Shown: positions 22,049 through 46,241, numbered from the stretch's first letter. The stretch is DNA of 64,000 bases from Chitinophagales bacterium (GCA_026461075.1 JAPJNH010000051.1:65816-129815), one strand, 5' to 3'. Translations and numbers: made by a program. The notes: generated by a model not told the origin, from the sequence alone.

Positions 22049-25000
22049 CTATCGTTCAATCACAATTTGTCCGTTCCCTTTTAGAACACCATTTTCTATA
22101 ATTCGATAAACATAAGTCCCTGCACTTAAATCAGGCAATTGAATTTGCTCCTTAGTACTTATAATAGCATTTTGCAATACCACTTGTCCCATTAAATTCA
22201 ATAATTGAAAATTTGCAGGAGTAGCTTGCGCACGTTCGATGCTAAGCACGCCATTACTTTCTAAAGGAGAAGGATATACCTTAATTAGATTCGTATTAAT
22301 CGCTTCCACTCCGGTAGCGAAGTCGTTATCCAACACAACTACTTGCATGGTTGTAAGTGCTCCCAAATTGGCATTCTGGGCAGAATTCAAGCTTATCGTG
22401 AATTGCTCAGATGTTTCGAATATATTATCATCCACAATATTAATTTGAATATTGTTCACGGTATTGAAAGGAGGAATGATTAATGGACTTGCCGTAATCA
22501 CTACATAATCGGTCGTTGGAAGACAAGTACCTGCATTCACAGTAAAGGATACCGATACAGGCGATGCCGTTGGGTTACTTACATAAACAGGCACGTTTAA
22601 CACGAGTGTTTGCCCTTCTTTCACCGTAGTGGCAGTACTTTGGAATTGAGCAACGGTTTGTAATCCGCCATTATCATTGTCAGTAATCGTACCAGTGAAA
22701 GTATTAGCCGCACCGATTGTTGCATTCACCGCATTACTCAAAACAATCGTAAATGTTTCTGTCCCTTCCACAATCGCATCATCCACAATAGTGAAAGTTA
22801 CATTTTGAGGGGTAGTCGAACCTATAGGGAAAATTATAGTTTGAGAAACAGTACCCGTTACATCTGTTCCGACCAAGGCCGTTCCGCTAGTAAGCGTTGC
22901 TGTAACGCTTACCGTAGTTGCACCTGGATTTTGAATCATTACAGGAACGGTAATAGTACCTGCACTTTCAATATAAGTATTTGCAGTTGTACCAAAGTAA
23001 ACCGTTGGCGCAAGAACATCGTTATCGATAATTGAAACTCCATCTGTTTGCATTGCACCCATGGTCGCTCCGATTGGATTCACTAGAACCAGTACAATAT
23101 TCTCTGTTGGCTCTACAATAATATCATCTACCACACTAATGGTGATGTATTTAATGGTGTCGCCAGGATAGAAGGTAATGCTACCAAGAGTACCACTAAT
23201 ACTATAATCAGCAGGAGTTATCGCCGAACCAGCAAGTGTATACGAAACTGTAACAGTATCACAATGCACATTACTTAAGAATACGGGCACTTGTAACATG
23301 CCACCAGCTTCGCCTATAGTTTGTGTCGGATTACTGCTAAAGGAAACACTTGGAGTAGGATCATTTTGTACAATATCAATATAATAAATAGAGTCCTGTC
23401 CAATTAAAACATTCACTGGATTAGAGAGTGTCAAAACCACACTTTCTAAAAATTCAGGTATACAATCATCCAATAAAGAGAACTGAACATATTGCGTATC
23501 ATTTGCCGAAGCAAAGGTTAAGATTTGCGGATTTGTCATAATAAAATCAACCCCATTCGTAGCCGTAGTATTCAACAAGTCCAAATTCACATTAACCGTT
23601 AATGGAAATACAGGTGTTGACCCTGAAGCTACTACCGGAATAGTAAGGGCTGCATTCATCTCGGAATACATGACATATGTTGGTTGTATGAAGTTTACAG
23701 AAACTGTCGGTGGCGTATAAACATCATCGTCCAAAATATCTATCAATGCATTTGAGGCTGCTGAGTTAATTTGTGTATTCGCTCCGGCACCGTACAACAT
23801 CAATGAGAAAGTCTCTGTTCCTTCGAAAATAAGATCTTGTATGATAGGAATCGTAAGAACAAGTTGTGTATCTGTTGGACCGAAGTTTAAAATCGCGCCT
23901 GGGAATGTATAATCCAATCCTAAAGTAGTAGTGATATCCATCGACATTACACTTACCGTTCCTCCATAGCCATATTCATTGGTAAAATCTACTGGCACTA
24001 GAATTGCCCCACCTCCTTCAGCGATGCTCATGCTTGCCATGTTAAATGAAAAGCTTGGGATAGGATTCATATCGTTCACTGTTACAAGTGTTGAAGCTGT
24101 ACTCACACCACTTCCACTCTGACAGTTTGCCCAAGTTGCGTTCAAAGTAAACGTTTGAGGAATACCACTCGTATTTAATGTAGAATTCGTATAAGCATCA
24201 ACATAAACAGAGGCGCTTAATTGCCCTGGAGGAATTACAACTAAAATCGAGGTAGTTCCATTGGCATATCCAGTAAAATCCCATGATGTACTTCCTGAAG
24301 GATAATTTGAAGAAGGGGCCATCGAAACAGTGATGTACATGGTATCACAATGTGCTGCACTTAAATTTACAGGAATCATCTGATTCATTTGTCCCTCATT
24401 TATGCTATAAGTAGAAGCTCCAAAACTGACTGTTGGAGGAGCATCGTTTGGCAAGATATCTAATGAATAAATAGAATCTATTCCAATAGATACACCCGCA
24501 CTTGGATTTGAAACAAGCAATTGAATACTTTCCATTAGTTCACAAACGCATTCATCATAAACATCTAAAGAAACATACTGCGTGTCTTGCGCATTCAAGA
24601 ATGTTAATGTTGTAGTTGTAAAGTTATAATCAATACCCGCAATAGCCGTTGTATTAGCAGCAAGTAAACTAACGTCAGCCGTATATGGCCCTGCTGCACT
24701 TGCGTTCAGCACAACAGGAATTTGCAATGTAATCGCTTGCTCTAAAATGCTGTTATTAACAGGCGCAAGGAATTGGATTGTATTCGTTGGAGCAAAATCA
24801 TTATCCAAAATATCTACACGCAAAGTATCCTGAGCAATCGCTTGTATTTGAGCATTCTGCGGATTTGAAAACTCAATGTATAAATCCTCTGTGTTCTCCA
24901 TATTCAAATCGTCGATAATCTGCAATGTATCTGGGTCAATTAATCCATTCCAGTAAGGAGGAATTACGACCGTTTGTGTAACGAAGTTGTAATCTGATCC

Positions 25001-25801
25001 AGAGGTAGCACTACCCGCACTACTTACCAAAACAACGTCTACCTTCGTAGTGTCACTATTCGCAAATAAGATATGCATTGGCAAATTTACCGTACCACTA
25101 TTCTCGTTGAAAACAGCATAGGTAGAATCAAAAATCACCGTTGGAGGAATTGGTGTTCCACAAGGGAAGGCTGTATGACTACCTAGCATCGTAAATGTAT
25201 TCATTGGATAAGCCGTCCATTCATACATCCCTTTCATCATCCAATTCTTTTCTCCATGATAAATATTAGGATTACGAACAAGTGTAGTATTGATTGAGAA
25301 GTTATTTGTAAGCGGTGTATTAATTTGCCAAGAAGCGCCAGGGTTATTACATAATTCACCAAAAATATCTAGAGTATCACCGTTCAAGGTGTTAATCAAA
25401 TAAACTGCATCATTACCATTAAAATTTAATGATGCCCAGGTAGTATCTCTTGCCGCTACAACCGCAGGGCTTAGTCCTCCAGTTCCATTGAAAGACACGA
25501 CATAAACATCTCCTGGAAGAAGATTTACGCTTGCTGGCAGACGCATTGTATCTGGATTACCACATCCCGGCGTGGAGGTTCCTCGCATTGAAACACCTAA
25601 AAGATAATTTCCTAGATTTACAGGAATTGTTTTGGGATTATAAATCTCAATTACCTTGTTGGCAGAAAATCCAGGTCCAGGTTCTACATACTCACTAAAA
25701 AACAAATCTGCACAATTTATACCATAGGTCGATTGAGCAAAACTTGCATTTTTACCAACGAATAAAAGACAAAATACAATTAGCGTAACTAGTTTCTTCA
25801 T
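22049..25801 (-). CDS. Giant secreted protein: lamin-tail-like N-domain + about 9 Calx-beta repeats + T9SS type A C-terminal domain
   Basis: 1250 aa with signal peptide. SEYVEPGPG..NKVIEIYNP (LTD-like). Repeated ...DDxIxExTExF... Calx-beta signatures (e.g. IVDDAIVEGTETFTIVLSN). C-terminus KVYPSP...GTYVYRII...IVIER. Confidence 0.85.
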   Translation of the reverse strand: MKKLVTLIVFCLLFVGKNASFAQSTYGINCADLFFSEYVEPGPGFSANKVIEIYNPKTIPVNLGNYLLGVSMRGTSTPGCGNPDTMRLPASVNLLPGDVYVVSFNGTGGLSPAVVAARDTTWASLNFNGNDAVYLINTLNGDTLDIFGELCNNPGASWQINTPLTNNFSINTTLVRNPNIYHGEKNWMMKGMYEWTAYPMNTFTMLGSHTAFPCGTPIPPTVIFDSTYAVFNENSGTVNLPMHILFANSDTTKVDVVLVSSAGSATSGSDYNFVTQTVVIPPYWNGLIDPDTLQIIDDLNMENTEDLYIEFSNPQNAQIQAIAQDTLRVDILDNDFAPTNTIQFLAPVNNSILEQAITLQIPVVLNASAAGPYTADVSLLAANTTAIAGIDYNFTTTTLTFLNAQDTQYVSLDVYDECVCELMESIQLLVSNPSAGVSIGIDSIYSLDILPNDAPPTVSFGASTYSINEGQMNQMIPVNLSAAHCDTMYITVSMAPSSNYPSGSTSWDFTGYANGTTSILVVIPPGQLSASVYVDAYTNSTLNTSGIPQTFTLNATWANCQSGSGVSTASTLVTVNDMNPIPSFSFNMASMSIAEGGGAILVPVDFTNEYGYGGTVSVMSMDITTTLGLDYTFPGAILNFGPTDTQLVLTIPIIQDLIFEGTETFSLMLYGAGANTQINSAASNALIDILDDDVYTPPTVSVNFIQPTYVMYSEMNAALTIPVVASGSTPVFPLTVNVNLDLLNTTATNGVDFIMTNPQILTFASANDTQYVQFSLLDDCIPEFLESVVLTLSNPVNVLIGQDSIYYIDIVQNDPTPSVSFSSNPTQTIGEAGGMLQVPVFLSNVHCDTVTVSYTLAGSAITPADYSISGTLGSITFYPGDTIKYITISVVDDIIVEPTENIVLVLVNPIGATMGAMQTDGVSIIDNDVLAPTVYFGTTANTYIESAGTITVPVMIQNPGATTVSVTATLTSGTALVGTDVTGTVSQTIIFPIGSTTPQNVTFTIVDDAIVEGTETFTIVLSNAVNATIGAANTFTGTITDNDNGGLQTVAQFQSTATTVKEGQTLVLNVPVYVSNPTASPVSVSFTVNAGTCLPTTDYVVITASPLIIPPFNTVNNIQINIVDDNIFETSEQFTISLNSAQNANLGALTTMQVVVLDNDFATGVEAINTNLIKVYPSPLESNGVLSIERAQATPANFQLLNLMGQVVLQNAIISTKEQIQLPDLSAGTYVYRIIENGVLKGNGQIVIER
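22316..25156 (-). repeat. Array of about 9 diverged Calx-beta domain repeats (protein-level tandem repeats; boundaries approximate)
   Basis: An approximately 100-aa unit recurs, ending in D(D/N)D / DD..(E/F)..E motifs. Confidence 0.55.
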
Positions 25802-25858
25802 TGCTTTAAATTATGTCTTAAAAATAAAAAAATAAACCCGCTTTTGATTGATTTTAAG

Positions 25859-25894
25859 TAAAAAAAAGCCCCTCAAAATTGAGGGGCTTTTTTG
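25859..25894. terminator. Strong rho-independent terminator ending the paralogous type-B cargo operon (symmetric A-run/T-run)
   Basis: AAAAAAAA-GCCCCTCAA-aa-TTGAGGGGC-TTTTTT, 8 nt downstream of the stop at 25902. Confidence 0.8.
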
Positions 25895-25901
25895 AGAAGA
25901 A

Positions 25902-28900
25902 TTAACGTACTAAAGTAACGTCACCTTTCAGATAAATTAACTTACCGCCACCGCATTCTGCAATGACATTGTAAATATAAGTTCCTAATTCTTGTTCAAC
26001 ACCGCGGAATTTACCATCCCAACCTTTACTGTTTTTATCGTTGGTTGCGAACATCAATTGTCCCCAACGGTTATAAACCTCTAAACGTACCAAACGATAG
26101 AAATCATCTGGATTAAGAACACGGAATGTACGATCTGCCTCTACATCAGAGTTTGGCGCAAAAGCATTCGGAATTCTTAATGCTTCACACATACGAATAG
26201 TCACATGCATGGTATCCATATCCATACAACCAAACGAAGCATTATAGTAAGTTAATACATAATCTTGATCTACACTTGGAGTCGCATTTGGATCCATTAA
26301 GGTTGGATTGTCCAAAGTGGCTGCAGGTGACCATAAATACGCGTTACCACCAATACTTCCGCTTCCATCCAAATGAGCTGCATTGCCAACGAAGATGGTT
26401 TGATCTGCACCCGCATCAGCAATTGGTAAAGCATGACCCGTGATATGATGAGAAGTACTATCTGTACAACCATTTGCATCTGTTACGAATACGAACACAT
26501 CTGCACCCCCTGTTACAAACAATGAATCATTCGCTGATCCATCGCTCCATAAGTAAGAAACATAATTTGGGCTTACAGCCAAACCAACTGTTTGATCCAA
26601 ACACAAATCATTTGGTCCGATAATAGTTGGCGTAGGCAATGGATTCACGTCCACATTTTGTGTTACTGGCAAACTGCTACATCCGTCTTGCGTCACTACC
26701 AAGGTTGTTGGATAATGTGCTTGTGTTGAAGTGCTATTAAAATAACGTACATTGTGCGGACCTGCTGTAGTCGCTTTATTTGGACTTCCATTATTGAAGG
26801 TCCAGTTGTATGTTACTTGACCACTGCTACTTGGATTCGTCGTTCCTGTATAACTAAAGTTAACCACTTGACCAGAACAAATAGGGTTAGGTGCATAACT
26901 GAAAGTTGCAGTAGGAATTGGGTACACCGTAATTAATACAGAGTCAGTATTAGAAGTACATCCGTTCTCTGTGATTGTCAAATAAGCAACCTCAGTTTTG
27001 ATACCAGAAGTTGTCATGTAGGTTACACTATGCGGTCCTTTAGTGGTTGCAGTCAGAGGACTACCATTAGGGAAGGCGTAACCGAATGTACATGATGCGG
27101 CATTTTGGTAAGTACTACCAGCACTTGTGATTGTTACAGGAACACCAGCACATGTTAAGGCAGGATTCGAGCTAATTTTAGCAACCGGATAAGGGTGAAT
27201 AGTTACGTTTACTGAAGCACTATCGTAACAACCATCTTGATTAACTAACAAGGTAATTTTCTTCACTAATGATATTTTCGAAGGAACTGTATTCCAAGTC
27301 ACATCATAAGTAGGCGTATTATTAATCATGTTAGCAATACCACCATTCCAACCCCAAGTGTATACAGGAATTGTAGGTGTTGGATTTGGAGCAACCCCTG
27401 TATTAATGGTTCCATTGAACGCAACAGTTAATGGAGAGCCAGTACATACCGCATTAGGTGTTGTACTCATGCTTGCCACTGGATTTGGATATATTATAAC
27501 TGAGTCAACAGTTACAATAGAAGGACAAAGGTTCGTTGGTCCAACACTTGTTTGCAACTTGATAATATACTTACCAGGCGCGTTCATTACTAGGCTTAGA
27601 TTCTTAGTAGTACCTACGACATTATTACCCTTATCCATCCACTTGTAATTAAGTCCTGGATAAGTTGCAGAAGTTCCTGTATAGGTTAATTTCAAGCTAT
27701 CGCCCACACAATGCGGACTATTACGAGCAAAATTACTTGTCAATGTTGGAATAACCACAACACTTGCAGAGTCTGGGAAGGAAGTACAACCAAAGTCATT
27801 CACCACCAAATGAGGCGTATAGATACCTCCAGCATTCCAGAATACTTGATATGGACCTTGACCAGAACCACTTAATACTTGCCCGCCATTCCAATTCCAA
27901 TTATAAGTACCTGCTGCAGTACCTGAACCTGTATAGGTTACTGTACTTGGGCTTCCCTGACAAACAGGAGAACTCATAATAAAGTCGGCACTTGGTGTAA
28001 GATTTTGAAGAATGGTAATGGTATCGGTTGCAGAGCATCCTGTACCAGATTGTGTCGCTGTAACAATTACCGAATCAGGACCAAATACTGTTACATTAGG
28101 TGTAGAACAATTACTACATCCTGAAAGTGCTCCACCATTGATCGTCGACCATGTCCAGCCGGTCATCGGAATATTATTTCCAGTTGCCCATAATGGAACA
28201 ACAGCACCTGGACAAACACTGGTATCCTTACGAACTTGTAAATTGATTGTTCCGATCACATTAACAACAACCGTATCAAACAATGGGCAATAAGAACCCA
28301 TTAACTGACATACATAAGTTGTTGTGGTAGCCGGGTTCACATTGATTGTAGCATTGGTATTATTTGGAATTATACTTGGAGGAATTGAACTCCAGAAGAA
28401 ATTGTAATTACCAACATTGATTTGAATTGGACAGCCCGTGAAGCGTGCATTCGGCAACAAATTGCTTGTACCAAAGGTGTTTGGCGTAGCCGCATTTTGC
28501 GTACAGCCGGCAATACCAGCGATATTACCCGCCCATACGACACAGTTCCCAGCTTGCGCTGTTTTTGCAACCACATCACTCGCGGAAGAAATAGCTGACC
28601 CAAAACAAATCTCTACTAACAAATCGCTACTACCATCCCAATCATATGCATTGGTAAAGGCAAATGTATTCCAACCTGCTGTAGTAGTATAATTCGTAGG
28701 ACCGTAAACCGTAGACAATCCACCAATGAAGTTAGTAGGCATTGCTAAGTTTTTATTGATACAACTTACTTTGATGGTCATATTGTAATGCGGCAAATAA
28801 CTATTCTTGGTAGTAATATTAAATGCCATTGAAGAAATCTTGTATGGCGTACCAGCTGCAATACCAAAGGCTGCTTGCAAACTAGCTGCTGTATAACGCA

Positions 28901-31900
28901 TCATCGTTCTTCCATTAGAATAATTCGCGTTGAACGGTGTTATGGTAGTTGTCAGATTATTACCTGCCCCTACAGTTACAGTTGTTGGAGCCGAAGCACA
29001 GTTATTCATTGTACTTAATCCACAAGGTACCGCGTTTACAGGTACTGGACCTGTAGCTGAAGCTGTCAAGCTAACCCCTTGGTTATTTCCACAGAACGTA
29101 GTATCCGCGCCGGCAGAAATTGTATTCTTCTGCATTTGGTAAACAGTGAAATTCTTGATCGTTTGACAACCTCCGTCATCCCCTGTAAGCGTATACGTTG
29201 TAGTTGTTAATGGAGAAACAAAAATGGAATCATTATGAGAAATAAAACCTGGAGGATTTGAGGTCCATGTCCATGTAGTTGTTGCTGTTGCTTTTCCACT
29301 ACATCCTTTAATGAATACATCTGGGCGTTCTGTGATTGTTGCTGGCAAAAATCCATTACCCGTTTGACCATAGTTAGGATCACAACCATTATAACTATCC
29401 GAATAAGCGTAAGCACATAAGTTAGCTGTAGCAGGTAAGCCTGCAGCTGCAGATATTGTAGCATTTGTAGTCTTAGCAACACGGTCATCAGAAGTCCAAC
29501 AGCTACTACCTGCATCATAACAAGTTTGAATCAAAAGGTTTGAAACTCCATCCCAAGCATACGGTGTTTGTAAAACGAAGGTGTTCATACCTGCTGTCGT
29601 ACTGTATGCAGTGGTGGTATAAACTTGCGTTAACGGAGTTGTTAAGTCCATTGCAACACCGCCTGTATAGATATCTGTATAAGGAACACATGCCATTGAA
29701 ATAGTAAACCCTGCAAATTGTCCATTTGCAGAACATGCTGGAATAGTACTTGCCTTATTTACAATATCCCATGCAACTTCAGAAATTGGTCCACCTTGGA
29801 ATCCTAAAGCTTGCAATTCAGAAGCTAAAATCAACATTTGACATTTAGATTCAGTGTAGAAACCGCGGAATGGTGTAGGTAAGTTTGCGGTAGTACCGCT
29901 GTTATTACCTGCTGCGTAAACAGAACCTCCTGCACAACTGATAGGTGATGGTCCACATACGGAAGGCGATGTCATAATGGCAATAGTATCGATCACCAAA
30001 TTACCGAATGGATCACGTAAACAGATGGTATCATTACCCATTACAAACAAAGAAGGATATTGACCTTTTACTAAAATAGGGATATCAATATTCGACCAAC
30101 AGGTAGTATCACCAGGAGGAGGTATGGCCGTAAAGCGAATATTGTGCGGCCCATTGCAATTGTACTTCAACTTGATTGGACCAGGTCCAATAAGATTTCC
30201 ACTCATTACGGTATAGCACGAGTCGAGTGTATAGAAATAATTAAAGTTAGGCTTTACTGTTCCTGTAAAATTCACAATGATCGAATCTGTCGGTCCACAT
30301 ACCGTATCTTGCGATACAAACATTGGTAATGGAGGCATCGGCTGGTTGATATGAATGGTTTTATAAACCGTATCAGATACACAACTAATATTAGATTGAA
30401 CAATTAAGGTAATCGTATAATTACCCATTTGATAATAAATATGCTGCGGATTCTGGGTAACGGTATCTATGTTAGGGTTATTAACCGTAGCATTCGGATC
30501 ACCGAAATTCCACTGCCAATGATTGATGAAAGTTCCCGCTGTTAGAGAGTAGGAAGAGTCGACAAACTGTACAATAGAACCAGCGCAGTAATTGGAAGGA
30601 TAGAAGAAATTAGCTACCGGCTTAGGTTGTGCAGTTAACAATGTATAAATAGTATCAGGACAACCAAATCCTGGGTAAGGGAATACCGCCAACGCATAAG
30701 TAGTAGGTTGAGTTGGCGCTGGATTCAATGTTAAATTCACATTGGTACCTAATATGGTAGTACAAGTTCCATCATACCAAACATAGCTTTGATAACCCGG
30801 AGGGCCATTCAAACCTGCGGTAGAAGATCCTGGACAATATCCTTGTACAATAGCAGAGATGGAACATCCTACGCCTACATCGACGTAACCATAACCCCAG
30901 TGACCACTAAAAGAACAGTCAAAAGTGGTGAATTCAAGCGCAACAGTACGTCCACTTAGACCATTCAATCCAATATTTTGTTGCGACCACGATTTATAGT
31001 GAACGGTAGGATCCAATGTAGAAGTTCCCCAACCTGGCATACTTGAACTTGCTGTATAGGCGAAAGTCGCACATGCAATGGAACTTCCTGGACCTAATAT
31101 ACTATCATAAACTTTTACAGTCACACCAGGCTGATCCGTTGCACCATGACTCGCATCCTGCAATACAGCAGCCCAGTTATAAACGATATTATAGTTGTTA
31201 TTTCCTGGCGGGATTCGAATATAATAAATAACGCGATCAGCTTGTGCTCCTACGTTATCATCCCCTACACGACAAGAGAAATTACCTCCACCAAAAACAG
31301 TAGGGCAAACTACAGGAAACAATCCATAAGGGTCTAAATTAACAGGAGCGGATGTTGGACTAGCTAATGCTGGATTCGGAAATCCAGAAGGCGTAATTTG
31401 AAAACGTGTTCCAGTAGCTGCAACGGTTGGAACAACAGCCGCCGCACCAAACGTTGGGGCTGTACCAGGATAAGTTCCTGTAAAACATTTCCAATTGGTA
31501 AAATTACCATATTCGAAATCAATATTAAGCGGACAACAAACTTGCGGTATAATACGCACGCAATAAGTTGGGCTCGAACAACCTGAAGGTGCCGTCTGAT
31601 AAACACAATAATTACCCGCATCATTGGGGCCAATACCTGTAATAGTATCTGCGTTTTGTGAACTATTCACACCATTTGTACTGTTCGCATTCCAATGAAT
31701 CGTATAGCCTGGTCCCGTTGGAGTTGCAGAGAAAATAAAGTCGCTACTATAACACGGACGCAAAGTATCTTTCACCACACCATTCAATACCATGTGCGGT
31801 ACACCTCCTACCAAGGTCGTAGACAATCCATTGAAAGATATTGTAGTTGGATATGCTGCCGGACCAGCACCTACAGAAATAATCAGTAAGGCGGTATCGC

Positions 31901-37320: not shown

Positions 37321-37347
37321 ATTTGTGAGTTTGAATTTTTGTATTAA

Positions 37348-39897
37348 TTATTTAATTAGAGTAACATTACCTGTTTTAGTTTTTACTTGCCCACCTTTAT
37401 CTACGACTTGTGCTTTATAGATATAGACGCCAATATCTTGTATTTGCCCTTTGTAAGAGCCATCCCAACCTTTCGCACGTATATCTGTTGTAGCGTAAAC
37501 TAACTCTCCCCAACGGTTGTAGACTTCAAAATAATCAAGCGAAACAAAATTTCTATTGAGAAGGAAGAAGTAGTCATTTTTGCCATCACCGTTAGGTGAG
37601 AAGGCACTTGGAATCACTAATTCCGGACATTCAATTGGATTGACAAAAACAGAATCTTTAGAACGACAGCCAATTGCATTAGCCGTATTAACATATACCA
37701 TCACCGGCTGTGTCACTGCTGCAACGGCAGTGGAGCATGTAACGCAAGCAGCAATCGATCCTGCAGACGGATCCATCGTCCACCAAAACTGAGTGATGTC
37801 AGATGCAAGGGAATTGAATGCTATTATTTCTGCCTGGTTCATACACGGTTGAATTGTGTCAGGCAAATCTAATGAATAAGGCTCCCCTACTCTTACTACA
37901 ATATTTTCAGTTAATACGCACCCACTATAGGTAATTCCTGTAACGGTATACGTTGTTGTTTGCATGGCAGAGCACACAACTTGAGGTCCTGTTGAGGAGC
38001 TTAAATCATTAGACGGATTCCAGCTAAAGCTAAATCCTCCGCTCGGTGTTGGGCCATCCATAGATGCCATTAAGGTGCAAGAAGATCCTTTACAAATCAC
38101 TGTATCTAAGCTTGCGAAAAGATGGTTTCGGTCATCCACATTAACAAGGAAAGTCTGAGAGGACGAGCAACCGTTGTCATTAATTGTGAGACTATATGCA
38201 GTTGTCACGATTGGATTTACCGTAGGATTTGGAACGGATGCAGAGCTGATATGCGTGTTCGGTGTCCAAGTATAATTCGCAGATGCGGGAATTACATCTA
38301 GGCCAAGATTGGTAATACTTAGGAAGTCGTTTTCTCCGGCACAAATGGTATCATCCCCATTAATTTGGAAGTTAGGACGTACTCCTAAAACAGTAACTTT
38401 TACGGAGTCAGTTAAATTACATCCAGAAGGATCTGTTAAGATAATATGGTAAACCGTGGTAACTGATGGAGATGCTTTCGGATTTGGAATAGAGTCGTTG
38501 CTTAAGCCTGCAGACGGCACCCAATGATATTGATAAGGGCCAAAAGCGGCATTAGCTGTTGCCTGTAATTGTGTGCTATCGTATTTACAAATACTAACAT
38601 TTAGTCCTGCATCCAAATTAATGGGAGGTGGAGGTACAATCGTAATCGATAAACTTGTAGTATCCGAAACACAGGAGATATCGGACTCAACGATAAGTGC
38701 AACAGTATAGGTACCTGGGTTATAAAAGACGTGGGTAGGATTTTGAGAAGTCGCAATATTATTAGCACCAGAGGAAGGATCTCCAAAATCCCAATGCCAT
38801 TGGACGATAATAGAGCCAGGGATATGCGTTTGACTAGAATCGTAGAAATTGATTAATCCACCTGCACAGGCGGTGGTTTGGAATCCAAACATGGCAGTAG
38901 GACGAGGCTGTACATGAATGGTATCATACAAAGTATCAGCGCAAACAACCAATCCTGGAGGGATTACAACAAGGGAATAGATAATATTAGAATCTGGTGA
39001 TAAAATCAACAATGAATCTGCAGCGCCGCTAGCAATGTATGGCGCACCAGTCCCTGCGGTGTCCCAGATATAAGTATTGAAACCCGGAGGACCATAAAGG
39101 GTTGCAGAGGTTGACCCAGGGCAATAGCCGGTTACGACAGAGAATGCGCCGCAGTTTAAATCAACATAGGCATAGCCAAAATGCCCACCAAGTGAACAAT
39201 CCGCTGTAGCAAATTCAATCGTCACTAAATGTCCATTCAAAGTACCTAAGTTAACTGACACTGGAATCCAACGCGAACAAAAAACACTACTATTCGTTGT
39301 AGAGACGAACCAGCCTTGCGTTAAACTTGCAGAAGAGGAAGGCGTCTGAAATAGAATAGAAGAACAAGTTACTTTTACCGGAGTGGCATAAGGATTATTC
39401 ATTGGGCCATTATCCCAAACATTAAAAACCAAGAAGGGCTGATTGGTTATAGCATGCTGTGGATTCTCCATAACTGCCGCATAGCGATAAATTAAGGATG
39501 CATTAGAGCTGTTTACAGCAAAGGTGGTACGTACCATTTCAGCCTCACCGCCCGTATTATCGTTCCCGAGGCGTAATGACTTCGTTCCGTAACCAATATA
39601 AGGACAAACAACTGGTAAAAGACTATATGGATCAAGTGTTCCATTAAATGGAGGCGTATACGTCAAGCCAGCCCCATTGGGGGTAACGGTATGTCTGCCA
39701 GCAACCTGACCAGGCACTGTAATACTCGGAGTACCAGAGTTATTAGTTCCTGTGAAACATTGCCAACCTGTGGTATTACCTTGCTCGAAACCAATATTTG
39801 GTAGACATTGCGCGAACAAACTGCTGTGAATACCAAGACTGAAAAGCCCTAGTAAAAGCAGTTTGACGCTAAAAAGCTTTAAAAATTGTTGTTTCAT
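37348..39897 (-). CDS. T9SS type B cargo (849 aa from the preferred start): module A + PKD + Ig-like repeats + type B CTD
   Basis: Start placed at MKQQFLKLFSVKLLLLGLFSLGIHSSLFAQ (39897; the track gives 39969). WDFGDP PKD domain. C-terminus FSPNGDGKNDYF...VYNRWGELVY...GWDGSYKG...GNVTLIK. Confidence 0.85.
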   Translation of the reverse strand: MKQQFLKLFSVKLLLLGLFSLGIHSSLFAQCLPNIGFEQGNTTGWQCFTGTNNSGTPSITVPGQVAGRHTVTPNGAGLTYTPPFNGTLDPYSLLPVVCPYIGYGTKSLRLGNDNTGGEAEMVRTTFAVNSSNASLIYRYAAVMENPQHAITNQPFLVFNVWDNGPMNNPYATPVKVTCSSILFQTPSSSASLTQGWFVSTTNSSVFCSRWIPVSVNLGTLNGHLVTIEFATADCSLGGHFGYAYVDLNCGAFSVVTGYCPGSTSATLYGPPGFNTYIWDTAGTGAPYIASGAADSLLILSPDSNIIYSLVVIPPGLVVCADTLYDTIHVQPRPTAMFGFQTTACAGGLINFYDSSQTHIPGSIIVQWHWDFGDPSSGANNIATSQNPTHVFYNPGTYTVALIVESDISCVSDTTSLSITIVPPPPINLDAGLNVSICKYDSTQLQATANAAFGPYQYHWVPSAGLSNDSIPNPKASPSVTTVYHIILTDPSGCNLTDSVKVTVLGVRPNFQINGDDTICAGENDFLSITNLGLDVIPASANYTWTPNTHISSASVPNPTVNPIVTTAYSLTINDNGCSSSQTFLVNVDDRNHLFASLDTVICKGSSCTLMASMDGPTPSGGFSFSWNPSNDLSSSTGPQVVCSAMQTTTYTVTGITYSGCVLTENIVVRVGEPYSLDLPDTIQPCMNQAEIIAFNSLASDITQFWWTMDPSAGSIAACVTCSTAVAAVTQPVMVYVNTANAIGCRSKDSVFVNPIECPELVIPSAFSPNGDGKNDYFFLLNRNFVSLDYFEVYNRWGELVYATTDIRAKGWDGSYKGQIQDIGVYIYKAQVVDKGGQVKTKTGNVTLIK

Positions 39898-40027
39898 TAA
39901 GGAGTAGTTTTCAGTTTTAAATAAAACCACACTCGCGTTAAGGGGCGCAAGTATAGTTTTCCTTCGCAATATAGTGAAAACTTCCTATAAAAGCAACATT
40001 TGGCTTAAAATCAGATAGTACAAAAGA

Positions 40028-41002
40028 CTACCCTACTTCTTGCAATTTCATACAATTAAAATGGCCTTTCGGACAAGATTTGAAGCCAATTTTACTACAA
40101 GGTCTGCAAGACAAACCTAATACCTCAAAATTAACTGCATTCGCAGGAGCGGTATCTGGATAAAAAGGATACATGCCGAAGCCTGGAACGGTATTCCCCC
40201 AAAACACATCAATGTCTTTATTATACGCGGCAGCGATGTGCATCATACCTGTATCGTTGGTAAAAACTTTACTCGCAACTTTAATCAATTCTGCTGACTG
40301 ATTAATGGTCAATTTTCCTGTCCAGTTGATTACTTGCTCAGGAAAGGCTTGCTGTATTTCCTGTCCCATTTCCATATCCTCTTTCCCTCCAATAACATGA
40401 ATTGGCAAATCTAATTTTGCAGCTATTTGCTTCCATTTATCCATCGGTAAACGCTTGGTCGCAAATTGCCCCCCAATTGAAAAGACAACAAATGGGTTAT
40501 CATTATAATGTTTTAAAAACTCGTGCTGTAGCCAGTTTTGAGCTTCTAGATCCGTAAAATGATCCAAACCTAATCCATCATAGGCAAGTCCTAATTCCTG
40601 ACCAGTTTCGAGATAACGATCGACAATATGCGGGACCTTAATTTGCTTTTTCCACTTCACCATTCTCCATTTATCCCAATGCATTTTCTTAACCGAAGAA
40701 GATGGAACTCCAAGGTATACTTTCAAAAAAGCACTTCTCAAATTATTATGCAAATCAATTACATAATCGTAACGCTCCGACCGCAACTTAGAAGCTAATG
40801 CCAATAATCCGTTTTCTAATGGTATGATTTTATCTATGTATGGATTATGCTGTAAAACACTGCTTAGCTTTTTCTTAACCGTCAAATGAACTTCGGCATT
40901 CGGATATTTAGCTTTCAAACAGCGATAAACAGGGCTCGTGAGCACAAGATCTCCAATTGAGCTAAAACGAATTACTAAAATTTTCTTCGGAGGAGGAAGC
41001 AT
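40028..41002 (-). CDS. Glycosyltransferase family 9 (LPS heptosyltransferase-like)
   Basis: 324 aa. KILVIRFSSIGDLVLTSPVYRCLK N-terminus and NDTGMMHIAAA motif typical of GT9. Confidence 0.85.
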   Translation of the reverse strand: MLPPPKKILVIRFSSIGDLVLTSPVYRCLKAKYPNAEVHLTVKKKLSSVLQHNPYIDKIIPLENGLLALASKLRSERYDYVIDLHNNLRSAFLKVYLGVPSSSVKKMHWDKWRMVKWKKQIKVPHIVDRYLETGQELGLAYDGLGLDHFTDLEAQNWLQHEFLKHYNDNPFVVFSIGGQFATKRLPMDKWKQIAAKLDLPIHVIGGKEDMEMGQEIQQAFPEQVINWTGKLTINQSAELIKVASKVFTNDTGMMHIAAAYNKDIDVFWGNTVPGFGMYPFYPDTAPANAVNFEVLGLSCRPCSKIGFKSCPKGHFNCMKLQEVG

Positions 41003-41011
41003 AGCTAAAAT

Positions 41012-41046
41012 AGAAAAGCCGACCTTATTGATCGGCTTTTCAAAAA
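41012..41046 (-). terminator. Rho-independent terminator after the disordered-lipoprotein gene
   Basis: Stem AAAAGCCGA / TCGGCTTTT with a 9-nt loop. The minus strand continues TTTTCTATTTT. Confidence 0.6.
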
Positions 41047-41057
41047 AGTGTTAATCG

Positions 41058-41876
41058 TTATTTCTTTTGAATAATCTCATTGGCCGTTTTAGGCTTTTGA
41101 TCAACTTTTGTTGGAACTGTACCAATCTGACCGTTTGCAGAAGCATTGTTAGCATTACCTGTATTTGCAGCTTTTGCTGCTGGTTGACTATGGGCAGGAG
41201 TGTTTGGTAAAGACCTTTTCGGTCCGCGTGCAGGACCTGTTTGACGACCATCCGCGTATCCAGAAGCTGGAACGATATAGTCTTTACTGCCATCCAATTC
41301 AGACGCTTTTTTATAATGTCTTTCGTACTCGCTGTTAGAACCGTTATAATCATCTACATAATAAGCGTCATTATAGCCTTCTGCACGACGAATGATAGCA
41401 CGCTCTTCTTGATCATTCACACCATCGTAAATGGATCCAGAGCGACGACGAGTTGTTGTAGTTGCTGTAGCTGCTGTGGCGGTATTAGCTGAAGTTTTTG
41501 CCTTTGAAGACGTTGTTACTGTGTTCTTTGCAGGAGTAGCTGCAGGTTTTGGTTCTGCTTTAACAACTTTCTTTTCAGCTTTAGCAGGAGCAGGAGTAGT
41601 TTCGGCTGGTTTGGCAGACTCTTCAGCTATTTTTGTATCCGAAGAGGAAAGGGCGTCAGTGCCAGCATCCGTAGTGGTTGTCGTTGTCGAATCAGAAAGC
41701 AATTCTGCATCTGAAAAATCAGAAGAAGAGCCATCATCCGCGAACTCACCCTCCCCAACACTTGTTGAGTCGGCCACTACCTCTTCTTGTTTACCAAACT
41801 TCTTTTTAATGAATTTACAGCTCACGTTAGAGGCGGCAATACTAGCAATTAGAAGCAGGACGAATATTTTTTTCAT
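41058..41876 (-). CDS. Predicted lipoprotein, largely low-complexity/disordered, charge-segregated
   Basis: Start placed at MKKIFVLLLIASIAASNVSC (41876), a lipobox-like signal with Cys. An acidic S/D/T-rich segment is followed by a basic K/A/P/T-rich segment, then a Tyr-rich ~70-aa block. Confidence 0.65.
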   Translation of the reverse strand: MKKIFVLLLIASIAASNVSCKFIKKKFGKQEEVVADSTSVGEGEFADDGSSSDFSDAELLSDSTTTTTTDAGTDALSSSDTKIAEESAKPAETTPAPAKAEKKVVKAEPKPAATPAKNTVTTSSKAKTSANTATAATATTTTRRRSGSIYDGVNDQEERAIIRRAEGYNDAYYVDDYNGSNSEYERHYKKASELDGSKDYIVPASGYADGRQTGPARGPKRSLPNTPAHSQPAAKAANTGNANNASANGQIGTVPTKVDQKPKTANEIIQKK

Positions 41877-41894
41877 AAGACTGAAAGGGTTAAT

Positions 41895-41902
41895 CAAATT
41901 TA
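41895..41902 (-). promoter_or_regulatory. Bacteroidota-type -7 promoter box (TAnnTTTG)
   Basis: Minus-strand TAAATTTG, 19 nt upstream of the ATG at 41876. Confidence 0.35.
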
Positions 41903-41917
41903 ATATAATTCTTTAGA

Positions 41918-42928
41918 CTAGAACTTAGGGCAAAACATCTTTTTTCCACGACTATAAACCGTTGGTTTAGATTTAGGACATTTAATAACGTATTGCAAGG
42001 TTAATTCTGGTCCGCCTTTATAGTTAGAAAACACATGAAGTGGAGATACGTTTACGTCATAAGACAAGCCGACTGCAAGATTAAGGATATCATAACGGAA
42101 GTAGAAGTTCAAGGCGTCAGCACCTGGACGGGTAAAGCGCATTCCTGTACCGAAATAGACTGCAGTTTCATACGTAAGGTTATCGTCAATCAACACTTTA
42201 CCAAGGGCTGACACGTTCAATTCTCTGGCACCTTTCTGCGTACTGTACTGAATCATAGGGATAACAGTGAACATATCGGCGAACTGGATAAATGCCGTTC
42301 CATGATATTGAAACTTGGTACCAAGCAAATCTGTGTAGTGTGCAAAAGATTGATTCGGACGTGTTAAGTGTGTAAAGCTAAAACCGGTTTGATAAGATAG
42401 CCAATTATACGGTTGATGATAAAATAATACCCCCGTACCAAAATCAGTAAAACTTACATTATTAGTTAATGTCACCACTTCAAACGGATTCTCCAATTTT
42501 AAATTGGAGAGATTCACCTTACGTTGCCAAGATCCAAATTGCAAACCTGCTGCAATGGTCATTGGATGCTTTTTATCAAGAATATGGCAATAGCCTAAGC
42601 TCATTCCAAAAGCACTAGTGCCATATTGTGCGTCACCACCAATATCATTAAAGAAATTAACGCCAAGTCCAACAAAATTCCCTTTCAATTGACCTTGCAA
42701 AATTTTTGCATCCATTGCGCCAGACATCGTATTAAACCCATTACTTCCCATAATGGAAGACCATTGATTTCTATATCCAGCATTCACACGCATACAGCCA
42801 TTGAATTGCCCAACCAAAGCCGGGTTCAAGGTCTGAGGCGACATATAATATTGTGTAAAATGATAATCCTGCGCAAATGCATTCAGGCTAATCATACAAC
42901 AAAGTATTACTATAATTTTTTTCATCAT
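41918..42928 (-). CDS. PorP/SprF-family type IX secretion system outer-membrane protein
   Basis: 336 aa with signal peptide. Family hallmark AQDYHFTQYYMSPQTLNPALVG at the mature N-terminus. Beta-barrel pattern, C-terminal Phe. Starts only 10 nt after the upstream type-B cargo gene. Confidence 0.85.
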   Translation of the reverse strand: MMKKIIVILCCMISLNAFAQDYHFTQYYMSPQTLNPALVGQFNGCMRVNAGYRNQWSSIMGSNGFNTMSGAMDAKILQGQLKGNFVGLGVNFFNDIGGDAQYGTSAFGMSLGYCHILDKKHPMTIAAGLQFGSWQRKVNLSNLKLENPFEVVTLTNNVSFTDFGTGVLFYHQPYNWLSYQTGFSFTHLTRPNQSFAHYTDLLGTKFQYHGTAFIQFADMFTVIPMIQYSTQKGARELNVSALGKVLIDDNLTYETAVYFGTGMRFTRPGADALNFYFRYDILNLAVGLSYDVNVSPLHVFSNYKGGPELTLQYVIKCPKSKPTVYSRGKKMFCPKF

Positions 42929-42938
42929 TAACCTTTGT

Positions 42939-45900
42939 TTAGCGTATTAGAGTAAGGTTTCCATTAAGCACTTTATATTCTCCATCGCCCAAGTCCTGAT
43001 AATTGATAATATAAAGATAGACCCCTGAATTCTGTTCTTTACCTCTGTGATAGCCATCCCATCCTTGGGTATAATCTTCTGAGTGAAAAACCTCTTCACC
43101 CCAACGATTGAAAATACGCATACTAAACTGATTGATTGGTTGATTTGCTGTGATGCGGAAGACATCATTCAAACCATTAGCATCTGGCGTGAAGCCGTTT
43201 GGAACCGTTATCACCGCATTTTGATAAATCATGGTAATATAAACGGTATCAGGTCCTGGACAATTACTTTCATCCTTAACTGTGTAATAAATATTATTCA
43301 ATGCACTTGAAATAACGGTATTACCGGTATCCTGATTTAATGCTATGTTCGGCATCCATGTGATAGTGCCTGTACCAATTGCATTTAAGGTAATATCACT
43401 ACCTGCAACTAAAGTGCTGTTCGGTGTTAGAATACGCGGAGCTGGTAAAACCGTAATCGTTTTAATCATTGTATTGCTCTTTCCATATTTATTAGAATCT
43501 ACCAAGGTAATGGTAAAGGTTCCAGGATATTGGTAGCAAATATTTTTAGGGTTTATTTGCGTAGAGAACAAACTATCTGCACCAGTGAATGTCCAAAGGC
43601 TAGTAAACGGCGCTTCTGTACTTATATTGGTGATATCAATACAAGTTGATGCACAGGTTGTGGTAGGCATATAAAAATCTGCTGTTGGAGGCAAACAAGA
43701 CAATACTGTAATGTATTTCGTCATGCTATTTGATCCATATGCATTTTGTACCGTCAATTTGATACTATACGTACCTGGTGTTCCATACTGTACTGTAGGA
43801 CTAGATTGATTGGAGATACCAGGGCTAGCACCAGAAAGTGCCCAGTAGTAAATAAGTGGTCCATGTAGTGAAGAGTCCGTTAAGACAATTGGTGTGTTCA
43901 TACAAACTGTATCAGCAGGGATACCAAAATTGGCAACAGGCAAAGAACAGTCTGTAATCGTAATTTGATTGGTAACAGCTGAACTTGCGCCGCAAACGTT
44001 CCACGCAATCATCTGTATAGTGTAGGTCCCTGCAGTTGGGTAGATATGCGTTGGAGTTTGTAAAGTACTTGTATCGGTACCTGAACCAGCTTGACCGAAA
44101 GTCCACTGCCAAGCATTTGGTGAACCGGTAGTATTATCATAAAGTGTGATTGGCGTATTATTACAGTAAGGAGGATTCAAGCTAAATTGGGCAGTTGGGA
44201 TCGTTTTAACATTTATCGTTTTCGTAGCGACATTAGATCCACAAAGATTACTAGCGATTAATTGAATAATTTGATTCCCTGCCGCATTAAACTGGATTGC
44301 CCCTGGATTTTGAGTGGTAGAGGTCGCTGGTGAAGAATTGGCAAATGACCAGGCCCAGTTTGTAGGAGTATTAGAACTTCCGTCTGTGATATTGAGCGTA
44401 TTCCCTACGCAGACACTGTTTGCGCTAGCATTAATGGCCGCTAATGGAGCGCCAGGAAAGATTACAAGGGTCTTTGTAAAAACACCACTATTACCAAGGG
44501 TATTTCCTGCAACTAGCGAAATGGTAACGGTTGCAGCAGTGGTAAGAGAAGAGTTAAACGTGATAATGCCTGGGTTTTGCAAATTAGAACTAGGAATAGA
44601 CACGGTGATTCCTCCTGTATTGGTACTGTTAAAATTCCAGCTCCATGTAGTTGGCCCGTTAATAGAGAGGTCCGTAACCGTAATTGTCGAACCCGAACAA
44701 ATGGTATCATTCGGACTAAGACTGAATGAAGCAACAGGCGTTAAGCAGAACTGAGTCGTCACGTTGACGGCAGCTGAAGCTAAGCTAGTACAGCCTCCAA
44801 CCGTATTCGTAACGGTGTAATTACCTGTTTGAGGAGCATTTACACTCGGGATAACCGGGTTTTGTTGCGTTGATGTGAATGCATTAGGGCCGGTCCATGA
44901 CCAAGTTCCTGACGGAGAACCGTTAGGATTAGCTGTTAGGTTACACGACTGACCTGTACATACCGGAGCATTACTCGAGGCGATTGGCGTTTGCGGGATC
45001 GGGTTTACATCCACCAAAATACAAGTTGAGGCGCTATTACAACCTACTGTTTGATATTGATAAACGCAGTACTGACCAGAATCGACTTGCGTAACAGCCG
45101 CTGCCGCAATAGAGATTGAAGCACCCGTACCAATTAATCCAGAAGGGCCTGTCCATACCATGGTCATTCCTGCTAATCCTGTTGCGCTAATATTGATACC
45201 GCTTCCTAAACAAACGGGATTACTGGCTGCAGTTACGCCACTTGGTGCTGCAGGAGATGTTCCTACTTGCACAAATACCCAGGCTGTATCACATAATGTC
45301 GGGCTTCCATTATCACAAATTTGATATTGAAAGGAATCTTGTCCGCAATAGTTTGCAGTGGAAGTATAGGTAAGTCCGCCATTAGAACCAATACCAGTAA
45401 TGGTTCCATGCTGCGGTTGCGTAACAATTGTTGCGTTCAAAAAGATATTATCTGTCGGATCTGGGTCGTAGTCATTCACCATGACATTCGTAGTGGTAGC
45501 GGTTCCAGAAGCAGCATTTAGATTGTCGTTGGCAGCAACAGGCTGATTATTTAAAACAGTATAAAACAAATTAATTGAATCAACTGCAAAAGAAGGGTCA
45601 GTGCCTAAGGCGTCATTATCGTTGTCCCAAAGAAATCCTATTCTAAAGTTGGCCAAGTTGTTATAAAGGGATGGGAGAGCCATTGAGAAGCGGGTCCACT
45701 GCCCTTGCGGCGCGCAGGTTAAGGGTGTTTTAGCTAGTAAAACATTATTCCATGTGGTACCATCGAAGAGTTGTAAAGTAGCGTTATCATCAGAACCTTC
45801 CCCATTTAAGATATAGTTAAAGGAAATAACAATACTAGATTTACCCGCGCAGTTAATGATTGGAGATTGAGCGCGGTCGTGTGTTTCAGAGAATGAAGAT

Positions 45901-46241
45901 GCTAAGTATGTTGCACCATTATCACCTACCGTGGTAGATGCCACGTGAAGAGTTGGATCGCCTGCACCACCACTGCAAGAGGTACCGCAAGCTCCAGCGG
46001 TATGACCGGCTTCTTGACAGCTCACATACCAAGTATTCGGTAATGCCCCATTGTTTAGATTTAGGTTAGACGCGACGCTCCAAGTACCATTTACGGTAAC
46101 GAAGTTATTGGCTAAAGTGCCTGCGACAGGAGTAGCGATGGGATTACTGTTAAACAACTCCGTCCAAAATAAAGTTTGGCTAAAGCCCAACTGAATGGAA
46201 AAAGTCATAAGACAAAAGACAAGAAACGATTTCCGAAGCAT
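42939..46241 (-). CDS. T9SS type B cargo (1100 aa): MAM-like/jelly-roll N-domain + cadherin-like + Ig-like + about 6 PKD-like repeats + type B CTD
   Basis: Signal peptide. NDYDPD cadherin-like domain. Repeated PKD-like units. C-terminus FTPDANGLNDVF...IFNRWGEEVF...GWDGYHRG...GNLTLIR. Confidence 0.85.
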   Translation of the reverse strand: MLRKSFLVFCLMTFSIQLGFSQTLFWTELFNSNPIATPVAGTLANNFVTVNGTWSVASNLNLNNGALPNTWYVSCQEAGHTAGACGTSCSGGAGDPTLHVASTTVGDNGATYLASSFSETHDRAQSPIINCAGKSSIVISFNYILNGEGSDDNATLQLFDGTTWNNVLLAKTPLTCAPQGQWTRFSMALPSLYNNLANFRIGFLWDNDNDALGTDPSFAVDSINLFYTVLNNQPVAANDNLNAASGTATTTNVMVNDYDPDPTDNIFLNATIVTQPQHGTITGIGSNGGLTYTSTANYCGQDSFQYQICDNGSPTLCDTAWVFVQVGTSPAAPSGVTAASNPVCLGSGINISATGLAGMTMVWTGPSGLIGTGASISIAAAAVTQVDSGQYCVYQYQTVGCNSASTCILVDVNPIPQTPIASSNAPVCTGQSCNLTANPNGSPSGTWSWTGPNAFTSTQQNPVIPSVNAPQTGNYTVTNTVGGCTSLASAAVNVTTQFCLTPVASFSLSPNDTICSGSTITVTDLSINGPTTWSWNFNSTNTGGITVSIPSSNLQNPGIITFNSSLTTAATVTISLVAGNTLGNSGVFTKTLVIFPGAPLAAINASANSVCVGNTLNITDGSSNTPTNWAWSFANSSPATSTTQNPGAIQFNAAGNQIIQLIASNLCGSNVATKTINVKTIPTAQFSLNPPYCNNTPITLYDNTTGSPNAWQWTFGQAGSGTDTSTLQTPTHIYPTAGTYTIQMIAWNVCGASSAVTNQITITDCSLPVANFGIPADTVCMNTPIVLTDSSLHGPLIYYWALSGASPGISNQSSPTVQYGTPGTYSIKLTVQNAYGSNSMTKYITVLSCLPPTADFYMPTTTCASTCIDITNISTEAPFTSLWTFTGADSLFSTQINPKNICYQYPGTFTITLVDSNKYGKSNTMIKTITVLPAPRILTPNSTLVAGSDITLNAIGTGTITWMPNIALNQDTGNTVISSALNNIYYTVKDESNCPGPDTVYITMIYQNAVITVPNGFTPDANGLNDVFRITANQPINQFSMRIFNRWGEEVFHSEDYTQGWDGYHRGKEQNSGVYLYIINYQDLGDGEYKVLNGNLTLIR

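Follow-up and report, generated by a model that had tools for sequence, protein, structure and literature searches.

The DNA examined here is a 64-kb stretch (hereafter the window) from an uncultured freshwater Chitinophagales bacterium, and the element in question is an interval of 24,193 nt within it (22049-46241) that is largely occupied by genes for proteins carrying type IX secretion system (T9SS) C-terminal domains (CTDs). Nine consecutive open reading frames (ORFs) lie here on the minus strand and encode, in order of transcription, proteins of 1100, 336, 279, 324, 849, 125, 1544, 2109 and 1250 amino acids (aa); the five large ones sum to 20,571 nt, i.e., 85% of the interval, in agreement with a first-pass annotation made from the sequence alone. 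That annotation had described an island of adhesin-like T9SS cargo forming a dedicated, diversifying cell-surface system on one strand. The strand bias is true of the interval though not special to it, as the same-strand gene run continues down to 11936. The features of the block are as follows.

42939..46241, minus strand: 1100-aa type B T9SS cargo (Pfam and NCBIfam above cut-off), with module B at 45537-46181, cadherin-like/Big_9 at 45303-45551, PKD at ~43242-44744 and type B CTD at 42942-43211
41918..42928, minus strand: PorP/SprF-family outer-membrane shuttle/anchor gene (TIGR03519, 139.1 bits, cut-off 90.55)
41058..41897, minus strand: low-complexity lipoprotein, 279 aa (272 aa from ATG), last gene of unit 1 (signal peptide and composition)
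41013..41041, minus strand: intrinsic terminator closing the 1100-PorP-lipoprotein unit (12-bp stem and U tract; -18.6 kcal/mol, z -6.9)
40028..41002, minus strand: GT9 (heptosyltransferase-like) glycosyltransferase, 324 aa (PF01075, 94 bits)
37348..39897, minus strand: 849-aa type B cargo, paralog 1 (Pfam/NCBIfam and BLASTP), with module A at 38890-39807, PKD at 38641-38904, Ig_7 repeats at 37615-38652 and type B CTD at 37351-37614
36943..37320, minus strand: 125-aa secreted protein with a signal peptide, between paralogs 1 and 2
32259..36893, minus strand: 1544-aa type B cargo, paralog 2 (Pfam/NCBIfam and BLASTP), with module A at 35859-36806, PKD at 35652-35897, module C jelly-roll at 34614-35306, Ig/PKD-like repeats and type B CTD at 32262-32528
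25902..32231, minus strand: 2109-aa type B cargo, paralog 3 (Pfam/NCBIfam and BLASTP), with cadherin-like/Big_9 at 31917-32162, module A at 30597-31544, PKD at 30372-30623, module C at 29259-29993 and 28386-29048, repeats and type B CTD at 25905-26177
25860..25893, minus strand: intrinsic terminator closing the 849-125-1544-2109 unit (14-bp stem and U8; -21.5 kcal/mol, z -5.7)
22049..25801, minus strand: 1250-aa type A T9SS cargo (PF00932, PF03160, TIGR04183), with lamin-tail domain (LTD) at 25367-25711, seven Calx-beta repeats at ~22322-25354 and type A CTD at 22052-22279
22004..22033, minus strand: intrinsic terminator after the 1250-aa gene (13-bp stem; -18.2 kcal/mol)

Domains were called with curated cut-offs (in bits: TIGR04131 35, PF13585 27, TIGR04183 23, PF18962 27, TIGR03519 90.55, PF01075 22), and signal peptides were judged by reading the sequences directly (hydrophobic core, cleavage-like site). 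All cargo proteins have signal peptides, which in the four type B proteins show a hydrophobic core and, after it, sites resembling cleavage sites (A/S-Q or A-N). The CTDs predicted by eye held up in the profile searches: TIGR04131 scores 38.7, 47.5, 48.2 and 51.0 bits in the four type B proteins, each match ending at the last residues and the 2109-aa protein being the weakest, and PF13585 (CHU_C) scores 39-72 bits in the same four, while the single type A CTD, at the end of the 1250-aa protein, reaches 34.6 bits with TIGR04183 and 29 bits with PF18962. The four type B CTDs had been called near-identical; five conserved blocks do align among them, yet pairwise identity is just 32-47%, with the CTDs of the 849-, 1544- and 2109-aa proteins 46-47% identical to each other and 32-34% to that of the 1100-aa protein. 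Type B CTDs carry five conserved motifs (A-E) within the last 100 residues (PMC12618676), to which the five aligned blocks may correspond. In the 2109-aa protein the first block is deviant (AFAPNSDVEAD instead of F[ST]PNGDGxND), and a deviation is kept in a distant ortholog (AFAPGSNVVED, L093 3-857).

The relatives compared comprise five haplotypes including that of the window (window, L082/L084, L002/L085, L088 and L090) and a sixth, more distant lineage (L093) seen solely at the 3' end of the block. In the closest genome (L002, a lake metagenome-assembled genome labelled Chitinophagales) the same genes occur in the same order, and the metagenome contigs L082-L084 share this gene order; L085 (of the same lineage as L002), L088, L090 and L093, found via orthologs of the 1250-aa protein, have the order 1544, 2109, LTD/Calx-beta, S41 peptidase, MetK. 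Presence/absence polymorphism of the block was not seen among L002/L085, L082-L084, L088, L090 and L093. Given that gene order in the block is kept in every relative recovered and that the whole 64-kb window holds no tRNA, no Rfam match and no integrase or transposase, the block is not an accessory island and is instead a stably inherited chromosomal cluster that is core to the clade. There is no clear compositional break either (GC 0.38-0.45 in the block, 0.41-0.45 in part of it, and 0.36-0.41 around), although the GC skew of the block differs from that of the left flank. Close relatives thus do carry the interval as conserved genome, and no already characterised function came to light for it among them.

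The proteins themselves are strongly constrained. Lengths across the relatives are 849, 1544 or 1541, 2108-2127 and 1236-1256 aa, indel positions number 0-6 per protein in most comparisons, and the ratio of nonsynonymous to synonymous divergence (dN/dS) lies at 0.03-0.05 in comparisons with L002 and L082 and at 0.09-0.12 with L090 (computed for paralog 1 on the 849-aa frame), i.e., strong purifying selection. With architectures and lengths frozen among the lineages seen, the proposed diversification by shuffling of modules finds no support. Positive selection was considered as well and rejected, since per-100-residue dN/dS is <=0.12 wherever measurable.

The upstream end of the block pairs a cargo gene with a shuttle gene. 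The 1100-aa protein consists of a signal peptide, module B, a cadherin-like/Big_9 domain, Ig-like repeats, PKD repeats and the type B CTD, and is 90-95% identical in relatives, with zero indels against L002 and L082; its best-conserved part is the CTD (97-98% over the last 200 residues). Just 10 nt past the end of its gene, on the same strand, begins the gene of a 336-aa PorP/SprF protein (PF11751, 95.4 bits, cut-off 22.3). Members of this shuttle family are 14-stranded FadL-like outer-membrane barrels that bind the CTD. The cargo-then-PorP/SprF arrangement recurs in L002, L082 and L083, and the PorP/SprF protein is 95-96% identical in relatives, with a dN/dS of 0.025. The 279-aa lipoprotein that follows has a signal peptide ending in ...NVSC and a remainder rich in A, S, T and K with 19% hydrophobic residues, so that it is probably disordered; it is 77-88% identical in relatives and has no Pfam or NCBIfam match even at E<=1. 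As it has no OmpA-like domain, it is not PorE-like.

The central part of the block is a tandemly duplicated family. The 849-, 1544- and 2109-aa proteins have in common an N-terminal region of ~400 residues (37-43% identity, E 1e-70 to 1e-120 in BLASTP), and the 1544- and 2109-aa proteins are colinear over their full length at 32-34% identity. Because of this sharing the three are tandem paralogs, paralogy in the interval having been noted in the first-pass annotation, and because neighbouring paralogs match so closely, tandem duplication largely explains the density of cargo genes. The 1100- and 1250-aa proteins are unrelated to them apart from common repeats; the extra cadherin-like module of the 2109-aa protein is shared with the 1100-aa protein. 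For paralog 1, the ORF at 37348-39969 gives 873 aa from a TTG, and the ATG at 39897 gives 849 aa; this ATG precedes the signal peptide and is the start in the same gene call of a public assembly. The 1544-aa protein is 90-95% identical in relatives, with zero indels against L002 and L082. The small 125-aa protein between paralogs 1 and 2 has no family match in Pfam or NCBIfam and is 87-93% identical and syntenic in L002, L082 and L084. At the downstream end, the 1250-aa protein (Calx-beta PF03160, 235 bits over 7 stretches) evolves at a different rate, with orthologs 47-82% identical as compared with 71-92% for the 2109-aa protein, and its gene always lies between the ortholog of the 2109-aa gene and the S41 peptidase gene.

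Cadherin-like, Ig-like and PKD domains are present in these proteins as noted in the first-pass annotation, which had left two modules unassigned; we count three (A, B and C), none of which has a sequence match in Pfam, NCBIfam or the PDB and among which profile-profile comparison found no relationship. Module A spans ~300 residues with the pattern CxPNIGFExGN..W ... DQPRF ... DCxLGGHFGYAYVD and invariant His118, His209, Asp59, Asp203 and Gln123. Word-indexed homology search proved insensitive (7 matches for module A, 1 for module C) and an exhaustive profile search was used instead, which returned 6,873 cluster representatives for module A at E<=1e-3 and 2,762 at E<=1e-30; the family size is a lower bound, at least 2,762 clusters at 50% identity. 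Of the top matches, 133 of 147 have the module at the N-terminus, and a type B CTD closes 128 of 156 module-A proteins. Public databases name these proteins "gliding motility-associated C-terminal domain-containing", "PKD" or "hypothetical", and they come from Chitinophagales including Flavipsychrobacter, Dinghuibacter and Segetibacter. An AlphaFold2 model of module A (pLDDT 85.5, pTM 0.83) predicts a beta-sandwich followed by an Ig-like domain, and Foldseek matches it to beta-sandwich-plus-Ig accessory units of endoglycosidases of glycoside hydrolase family GH85, to the MAM-Ig unit of RPTPmu and to small carbohydrate-binding modules (CBMs). Module C (~200 residues) occurs once in the 1544-aa and twice in the 2109-aa protein, is rare (5 of 156 module-A proteins) and is modelled by AlphaFold2 as a jelly-roll (pLDDT 75). 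Module B stands at the N-terminus of the 1100-aa protein. In a different genome (L094 3286-10649), two tandem genes with module A and type B CTDs (1463 and 882 aa) adjoin a type A cargo gene as well as an ECF sigma/FecR/CarboxypepD_reg cluster, and no PorP/SprF gene lies within 8 kb of the pair.

Three strong terminators split the block, which therefore comprises about four units: (1) the 1100-aa cargo, PorP/SprF and lipoprotein genes, (2) the GT9 gene, (3) the 849-125-1544-2109 genes, separated by gaps of 27-49 nt, and (4) the 1250-aa gene. The terminator after the lipoprotein gene is also found in L002, L082 and L084, and the hairpin after the 1250-aa gene is identical in L085, L088 and L090. 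In the 2109/1250 intergenic region four lineages have four different stem sequences, all of which pair and are followed by a T tract (the sites matching 25860-25893 are L085 9900-10000, L088 9897-10000 and L090 9897-10000); compensatory stem changes that keep the pairing argue that this terminator is functional. Scans for sigma-70 promoters in the region stayed at or under shuffle expectation, and the Bacteroidota motif TAnnTTTG was absent from the intergenic regions of the block. The proposal of a dedicated system is thus not supported, with one of the units a housekeeping GT9 gene and a single cargo gene having an adjacent shuttle gene.

Along with the PorP/SprF gene, the disordered lipoprotein and the 125-aa secreted protein, the GT9 gene had been correctly recognised among the cargo genes. 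Its product meets PF01075 but falls under every equivalog cut-off (TIGR02195 116.8 vs 134.6 bits, with the other lipopolysaccharide (LPS) heptosyltransferase equivalogs RfaC/RfaF/RfaQ far lower), and is for this reason assigned to the family only. Relatives of it, 331 in number and 42-50% identical, are spread over Bacteroidota, which makes it a core gene of the phylum that sits within the block. Elsewhere it mostly has neighbours other than T9SS genes: within 10 kb, type B genes occur in 7 and PorP-like genes in 4 of 80 loci. A functional link between GT9 and T9SS cargo was considered and rejected, as co-occurrence is about that expected by chance, bar a slight excess of direct PorP adjacency. 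GT9 directly abuts a PorP-like gene in L024, L012 and L034, and three type B cargo genes follow it in Taibaiella soli (L060), both possibly by chance. Between haplotypes GT9 is the most diverged protein of the block (72-81% aa identity and dN/dS 0.10, vs 90-96% identity for its neighbours).

Diversity of another kind is nevertheless present, as the whole block is a deeply diverged haplotype between otherwise close genomes. The five haplotypes have 70-85% DNA identity. On the upstream side, L083 is 92-98% identical to the window at the nucleotide level from 50.6 to ~47.3 kb and then 79-90% identical from 46.1 kb on, and L084 continues at ~84% identity to 31.9 kb; assuming that these two metagenomic contigs represent one genome, synonymous divergence (dS) from the window is 0.14-0.47 in the flank and 0.78-1.36 in the block, the latter being near saturation. 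On the downstream side, L090 is 89-98% identical in the left flank (TonB receptor, MetK), intermediate in the S41 peptidase gene and ~70% identical in the block, with dS of 0.17-0.43 in the flank and 1.7-1.9, again near saturation, in the block. The trees disagree: by the MetK and TonB flank, L090 is nearest to the window (94%, vs 84-86% for L085 and L088), while by the 2109- and 1250-aa genes it falls outside all the others (70% vs 77-79%). Relative to L085 and L002, divergence is equal in flank and block, and the contrast is hence no intrinsic effect of codon usage. With divergence in two comparisons much higher in the block than in its flanks, and with conflicting trees, the simplest reading for these metagenomic contigs is that homologous recombination has put old whole-block haplotypes onto closely related backbones, with breakpoints probably in or near the S41 and amidohydrolase genes; the pattern fits a recombination of old alleles. 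Outside the block, at least one gene, that for a major facilitator superfamily (MFS) transporter (8771-10045), has a dS of 1.19 against L090 with adjacent genes at 0.3-0.4, so that mosaicism is general and not confined to the T9SS block.

Loci of this type have known counterparts. Clusters of T9SS cargo with a PorP/SprF partner are already well known, and the arrangement is ordinary for the phylum. A gene order of cargo followed by porP/sprF has been shown experimentally to define cognate pairs (PMC12618676), the shuttle also anchors the cargo in Flavobacterium johnsoniae and Porphyromonas gingivalis (PMC9143113; PMC12618676), and crosstalk tracks CTD similarity (PMC9143113; PMC12618676). In the F. 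johnsoniae pairs SprB-SprF and Fjoh_3952-Fjoh_3951, a large repeat-rich protein with a TIGR04131 CTD is likewise followed immediately by a porP/sprF gene on the same strand, although the cargo here is without SprB repeats and has 1100 rather than 6497 aa. A disordered lipoprotein gene comes after PorP in the window, whereas Fjoh_3950 encodes a PorE-like OmpA-domain protein and sprB-sprF has no further gene behind it. In P. gingivalis PG1035-PorP-PorE (PMC9143113) the common working model is a type B cargo anchored by a PorP-family barrel; in contrast to that system, the present locus has no PorE-like peptidoglycan-binding partner and belongs to a free-living Chitinophagales with many cargo genes. 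Orphan type B cargo can share one shuttle (PMC12618676; PMC9143113), as the F. johnsoniae orphans Fjoh_1123 and Fjoh_1720 as well as Fjoh_4934 do with Fjoh_1677 (PMC12618676). Like these, the 849-, 1544- and 2109-aa genes are without an adjacent shuttle of their own and have CTDs most alike mutually; unlike these, they are tandem paralogs in one predicted operon, with a PorP gene 2 kb upstream in the neighbouring unit. The large CHU_C/Ig_7/PKD proteins of Cytophaga and Chitinophagales have the same PF13585 CTD, Ig_7 and PKD_4 repeats and annotation names, but modules A and C lie outside all the Pfam and NCBIfam models searched. Replacement-type flexible genomic islands and hyperdivergent surface-antigen loci (O-antigen, capsule) combine a fixed position and conserved flanks with diverged sequence and a discordant tree. 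The block resembles them in position, flanks, greater divergence and discordant tree and differs in that gene content is identical in all haplotypes, sequence alone varying under strong purifying selection.

From these domain identities and this gene order we infer a T9SS surface-protein cluster whose cargo is secreted, anchored and displays binding heads on stalks, a reading that we consider likely as a whole, with much higher confidence in the status of the proteins as T9SS cargo and lower confidence in adhesion as such. Each large protein would be exported by Sec through its signal peptide and would cross the outer membrane through the T9SS translocon by means of its CTD. The PorP/SprF-like barrel encoded 10 nt downstream would then pick up the 1100-aa cargo and keep it on the cell surface, the two being a canonical cognate pair, whereas the three paralogs, being genetically orphan type B cargo, may use the local PorP or a shared shuttle encoded elsewhere. 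The LTD/Calx-beta protein is predicted to take the type A route, passing from PorV to the sortase before it is attached to LPS or released. Once displayed, the proteins could hold out modules A, B and C on Ig-like, PKD and cadherin-like stalks as lectin-like beta-sandwich heads for binding to polysaccharide or other surfaces, adhesion being suggested by the domain types and by weak fold matches to lectin, CBM and MAM domains.

Several observations weigh against this picture. None of the T9SS core genes lies within the window, and of the four type B cargo genes three have no shuttle gene beside them. No role can be assigned to the lipoprotein or to the 125-aa protein, and the four units, together with the housekeeping gene in their midst, speak against one co-regulated system. 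Fold matches are weak (TM-score of 0.2-0.34 relative to the query and of 0.5-0.59 relative to small CBM targets) and name no ligand, those of module C to CBMs and ConA-like lectins having E>=1e-3, and the invariant His, Asp and Gln residues of module A could point to catalysis or metal binding rather than adhesion.

The same residues would suit large proteins that serve nutrient acquisition rather than adhesion, binding or degrading polysaccharide with modules A and C as CBMs or novel jelly-roll catalytic domains. A TonB-dependent receptor is encoded nearby, and the fold matches are dominated by glycoside hydrolase accessory domains and CBMs, including GH85 Endo-A/D, CBM28, a porphyran-binding CBM, the CBM of an acetylxylan esterase and CBM32/35. 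However, we regard this as rather unlikely, given that Pfam and NCBIfam recognise no catalytic domain in any of the five proteins, that no polysaccharide lyase or GH16 jelly-roll is among the top 50 fold matches of module A, that the block is without a SusC/SusD pair or regulator, and that a long Ig/PKD/cadherin stalk anchored by a type B CTD is typical of proteins displayed at the cell surface. A role as SprB-type mobile adhesins of gliding motility, loaded onto the gliding track via PorP/SprF, draws on the proposal that a PorE-like gene beside PorP marks static, cell-wall-tethered complexes (PMC9143113; PMC12618676) and that a type B CTD with adjacent PorP/SprF and no PorE-like gene downstream, as found here, is the configuration of mobile cargo (PMC9143113). 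The family name [quoted passage not shown] points the same way, though it reflects the CTD only. None of the proteins matches the SprB repeat (PF13573; E<=0.01, segments E<=1), sprC/sprD-like genes are missing, no gld genes occur within the window, and the proteins are 3-7 times shorter than SprB, all of which makes gliding adhesins improbable.

A horizontally acquired, strain-variable accessory island could explain the slightly higher GC in part of the block, its deviant GC skew and a divergence far above that of the flanks in two comparisons; we consider it very improbable and already largely refuted by the constant gene order in all lineages recovered, the lack of mobility genes and tRNAs, and the phylum-wide core GT9 inside, true presence/absence variation being found just outside (50621-61342 and 13124-16549). 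It is a possibility, though a doubtful one, that the block has no joint function at all and that a cargo-shuttle operon, a duplicated cargo family, a type A cargo and a housekeeping GT9 are merely co-inherited, which would be compatible with secretion and display of the cargo. Terminators separate the units, the CTD of the 1100-aa protein falls outside the group formed by the paralogs, the 1250-aa protein evolves at its own rate, and GT9 stands beside T9SS genes in a minority of loci, roughly as often as expected by chance. Against mere co-inheritance, the block acts like a single unit in recombination, its breakpoints being shared and close to the S41 and amidohydrolase genes, and its order is kept even where the 1250-aa ortholog is only 47% identical.

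We also put forward, very tentatively, that the 25-kb block (~21-46.5 kb) may be an ancient polymorphism of an entire surface-protein locus, with at least three haplotypes (70-85% DNA identity) on flanks of 94-98%, held by frequency-dependent selection (phage, grazer or substrate recognition) and swapped as a unit by homologous recombination within the S41 and amidohydrolase genes; module A would then be a large and as yet undescribed head domain that binds a ligand and is confined to type B T9SS cargo. Understanding of the T9SS is left unchanged by this locus; what it adds is the haplotype structure and module families without annotation, namely a very large one at the N-terminus (module A), nearly always on type B cargo, and a rarer jelly-roll (module C). 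It also offers a natural test case for the choice of shuttle by orphan type B cargo, as three orphans lie 2 kb from a PorP whose cargo has a different CTD type. Moreover, that an abundant uncultured lineage of fresh water has a surface-protein locus of fixed gene content whose recombining haplotypes are deeply diverged bears on surface diversity at the level of populations.

Further T9SS cargo genes lie outside the interval, one of type B and one of type A (55347-58145), the former being as follows.

13124..16549, minus strand: fifth type B cargo, 1141 aa (DUF7948, SBBP, PKD, CHU_C)

This cargo is present in L088 (59% identical), missing in L090, where the TonB receptor gene is directly followed by a dioxygenase gene, and replaced in L085 by a 491-aa type A cargo and a 987-aa protein. 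The real accessory region of the window is not 22049-46241 but 50621-61342, a clean 10.7-kb indel as compared with L083; in that contig the arginase-family and SRAP genes meet stop codon to stop codon, and the indel showed no flanking repeats. The segment holds six minus-strand genes, for a 475-aa protein of no assigned family, a Wzy_C-like protein, a GT4, a hexapeptide acyltransferase, a 932-aa PKD_6/Ig_7 type A cargo and a 1007-aa CarboxypepD_reg/Plug outer-membrane protein. Glycan-synthesis sets are found on either side of the block, one at 1-8766 (asparagine synthase, oxidoreductase, Glycos_transf_4, Bac_transf, GT1) and the other at 52063-55192 (Wzy_C, GT4, hexapeptide transferase), which suggests a surface-polysaccharide neighbourhood. 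Between the block and the accessory region, 47634-49562 encodes a 642-aa protein that has no Pfam family (a sub-threshold Imm74 match only) and is 94-98% identical at the amino acid level among relatives, with a dN/dS of ~0.03.

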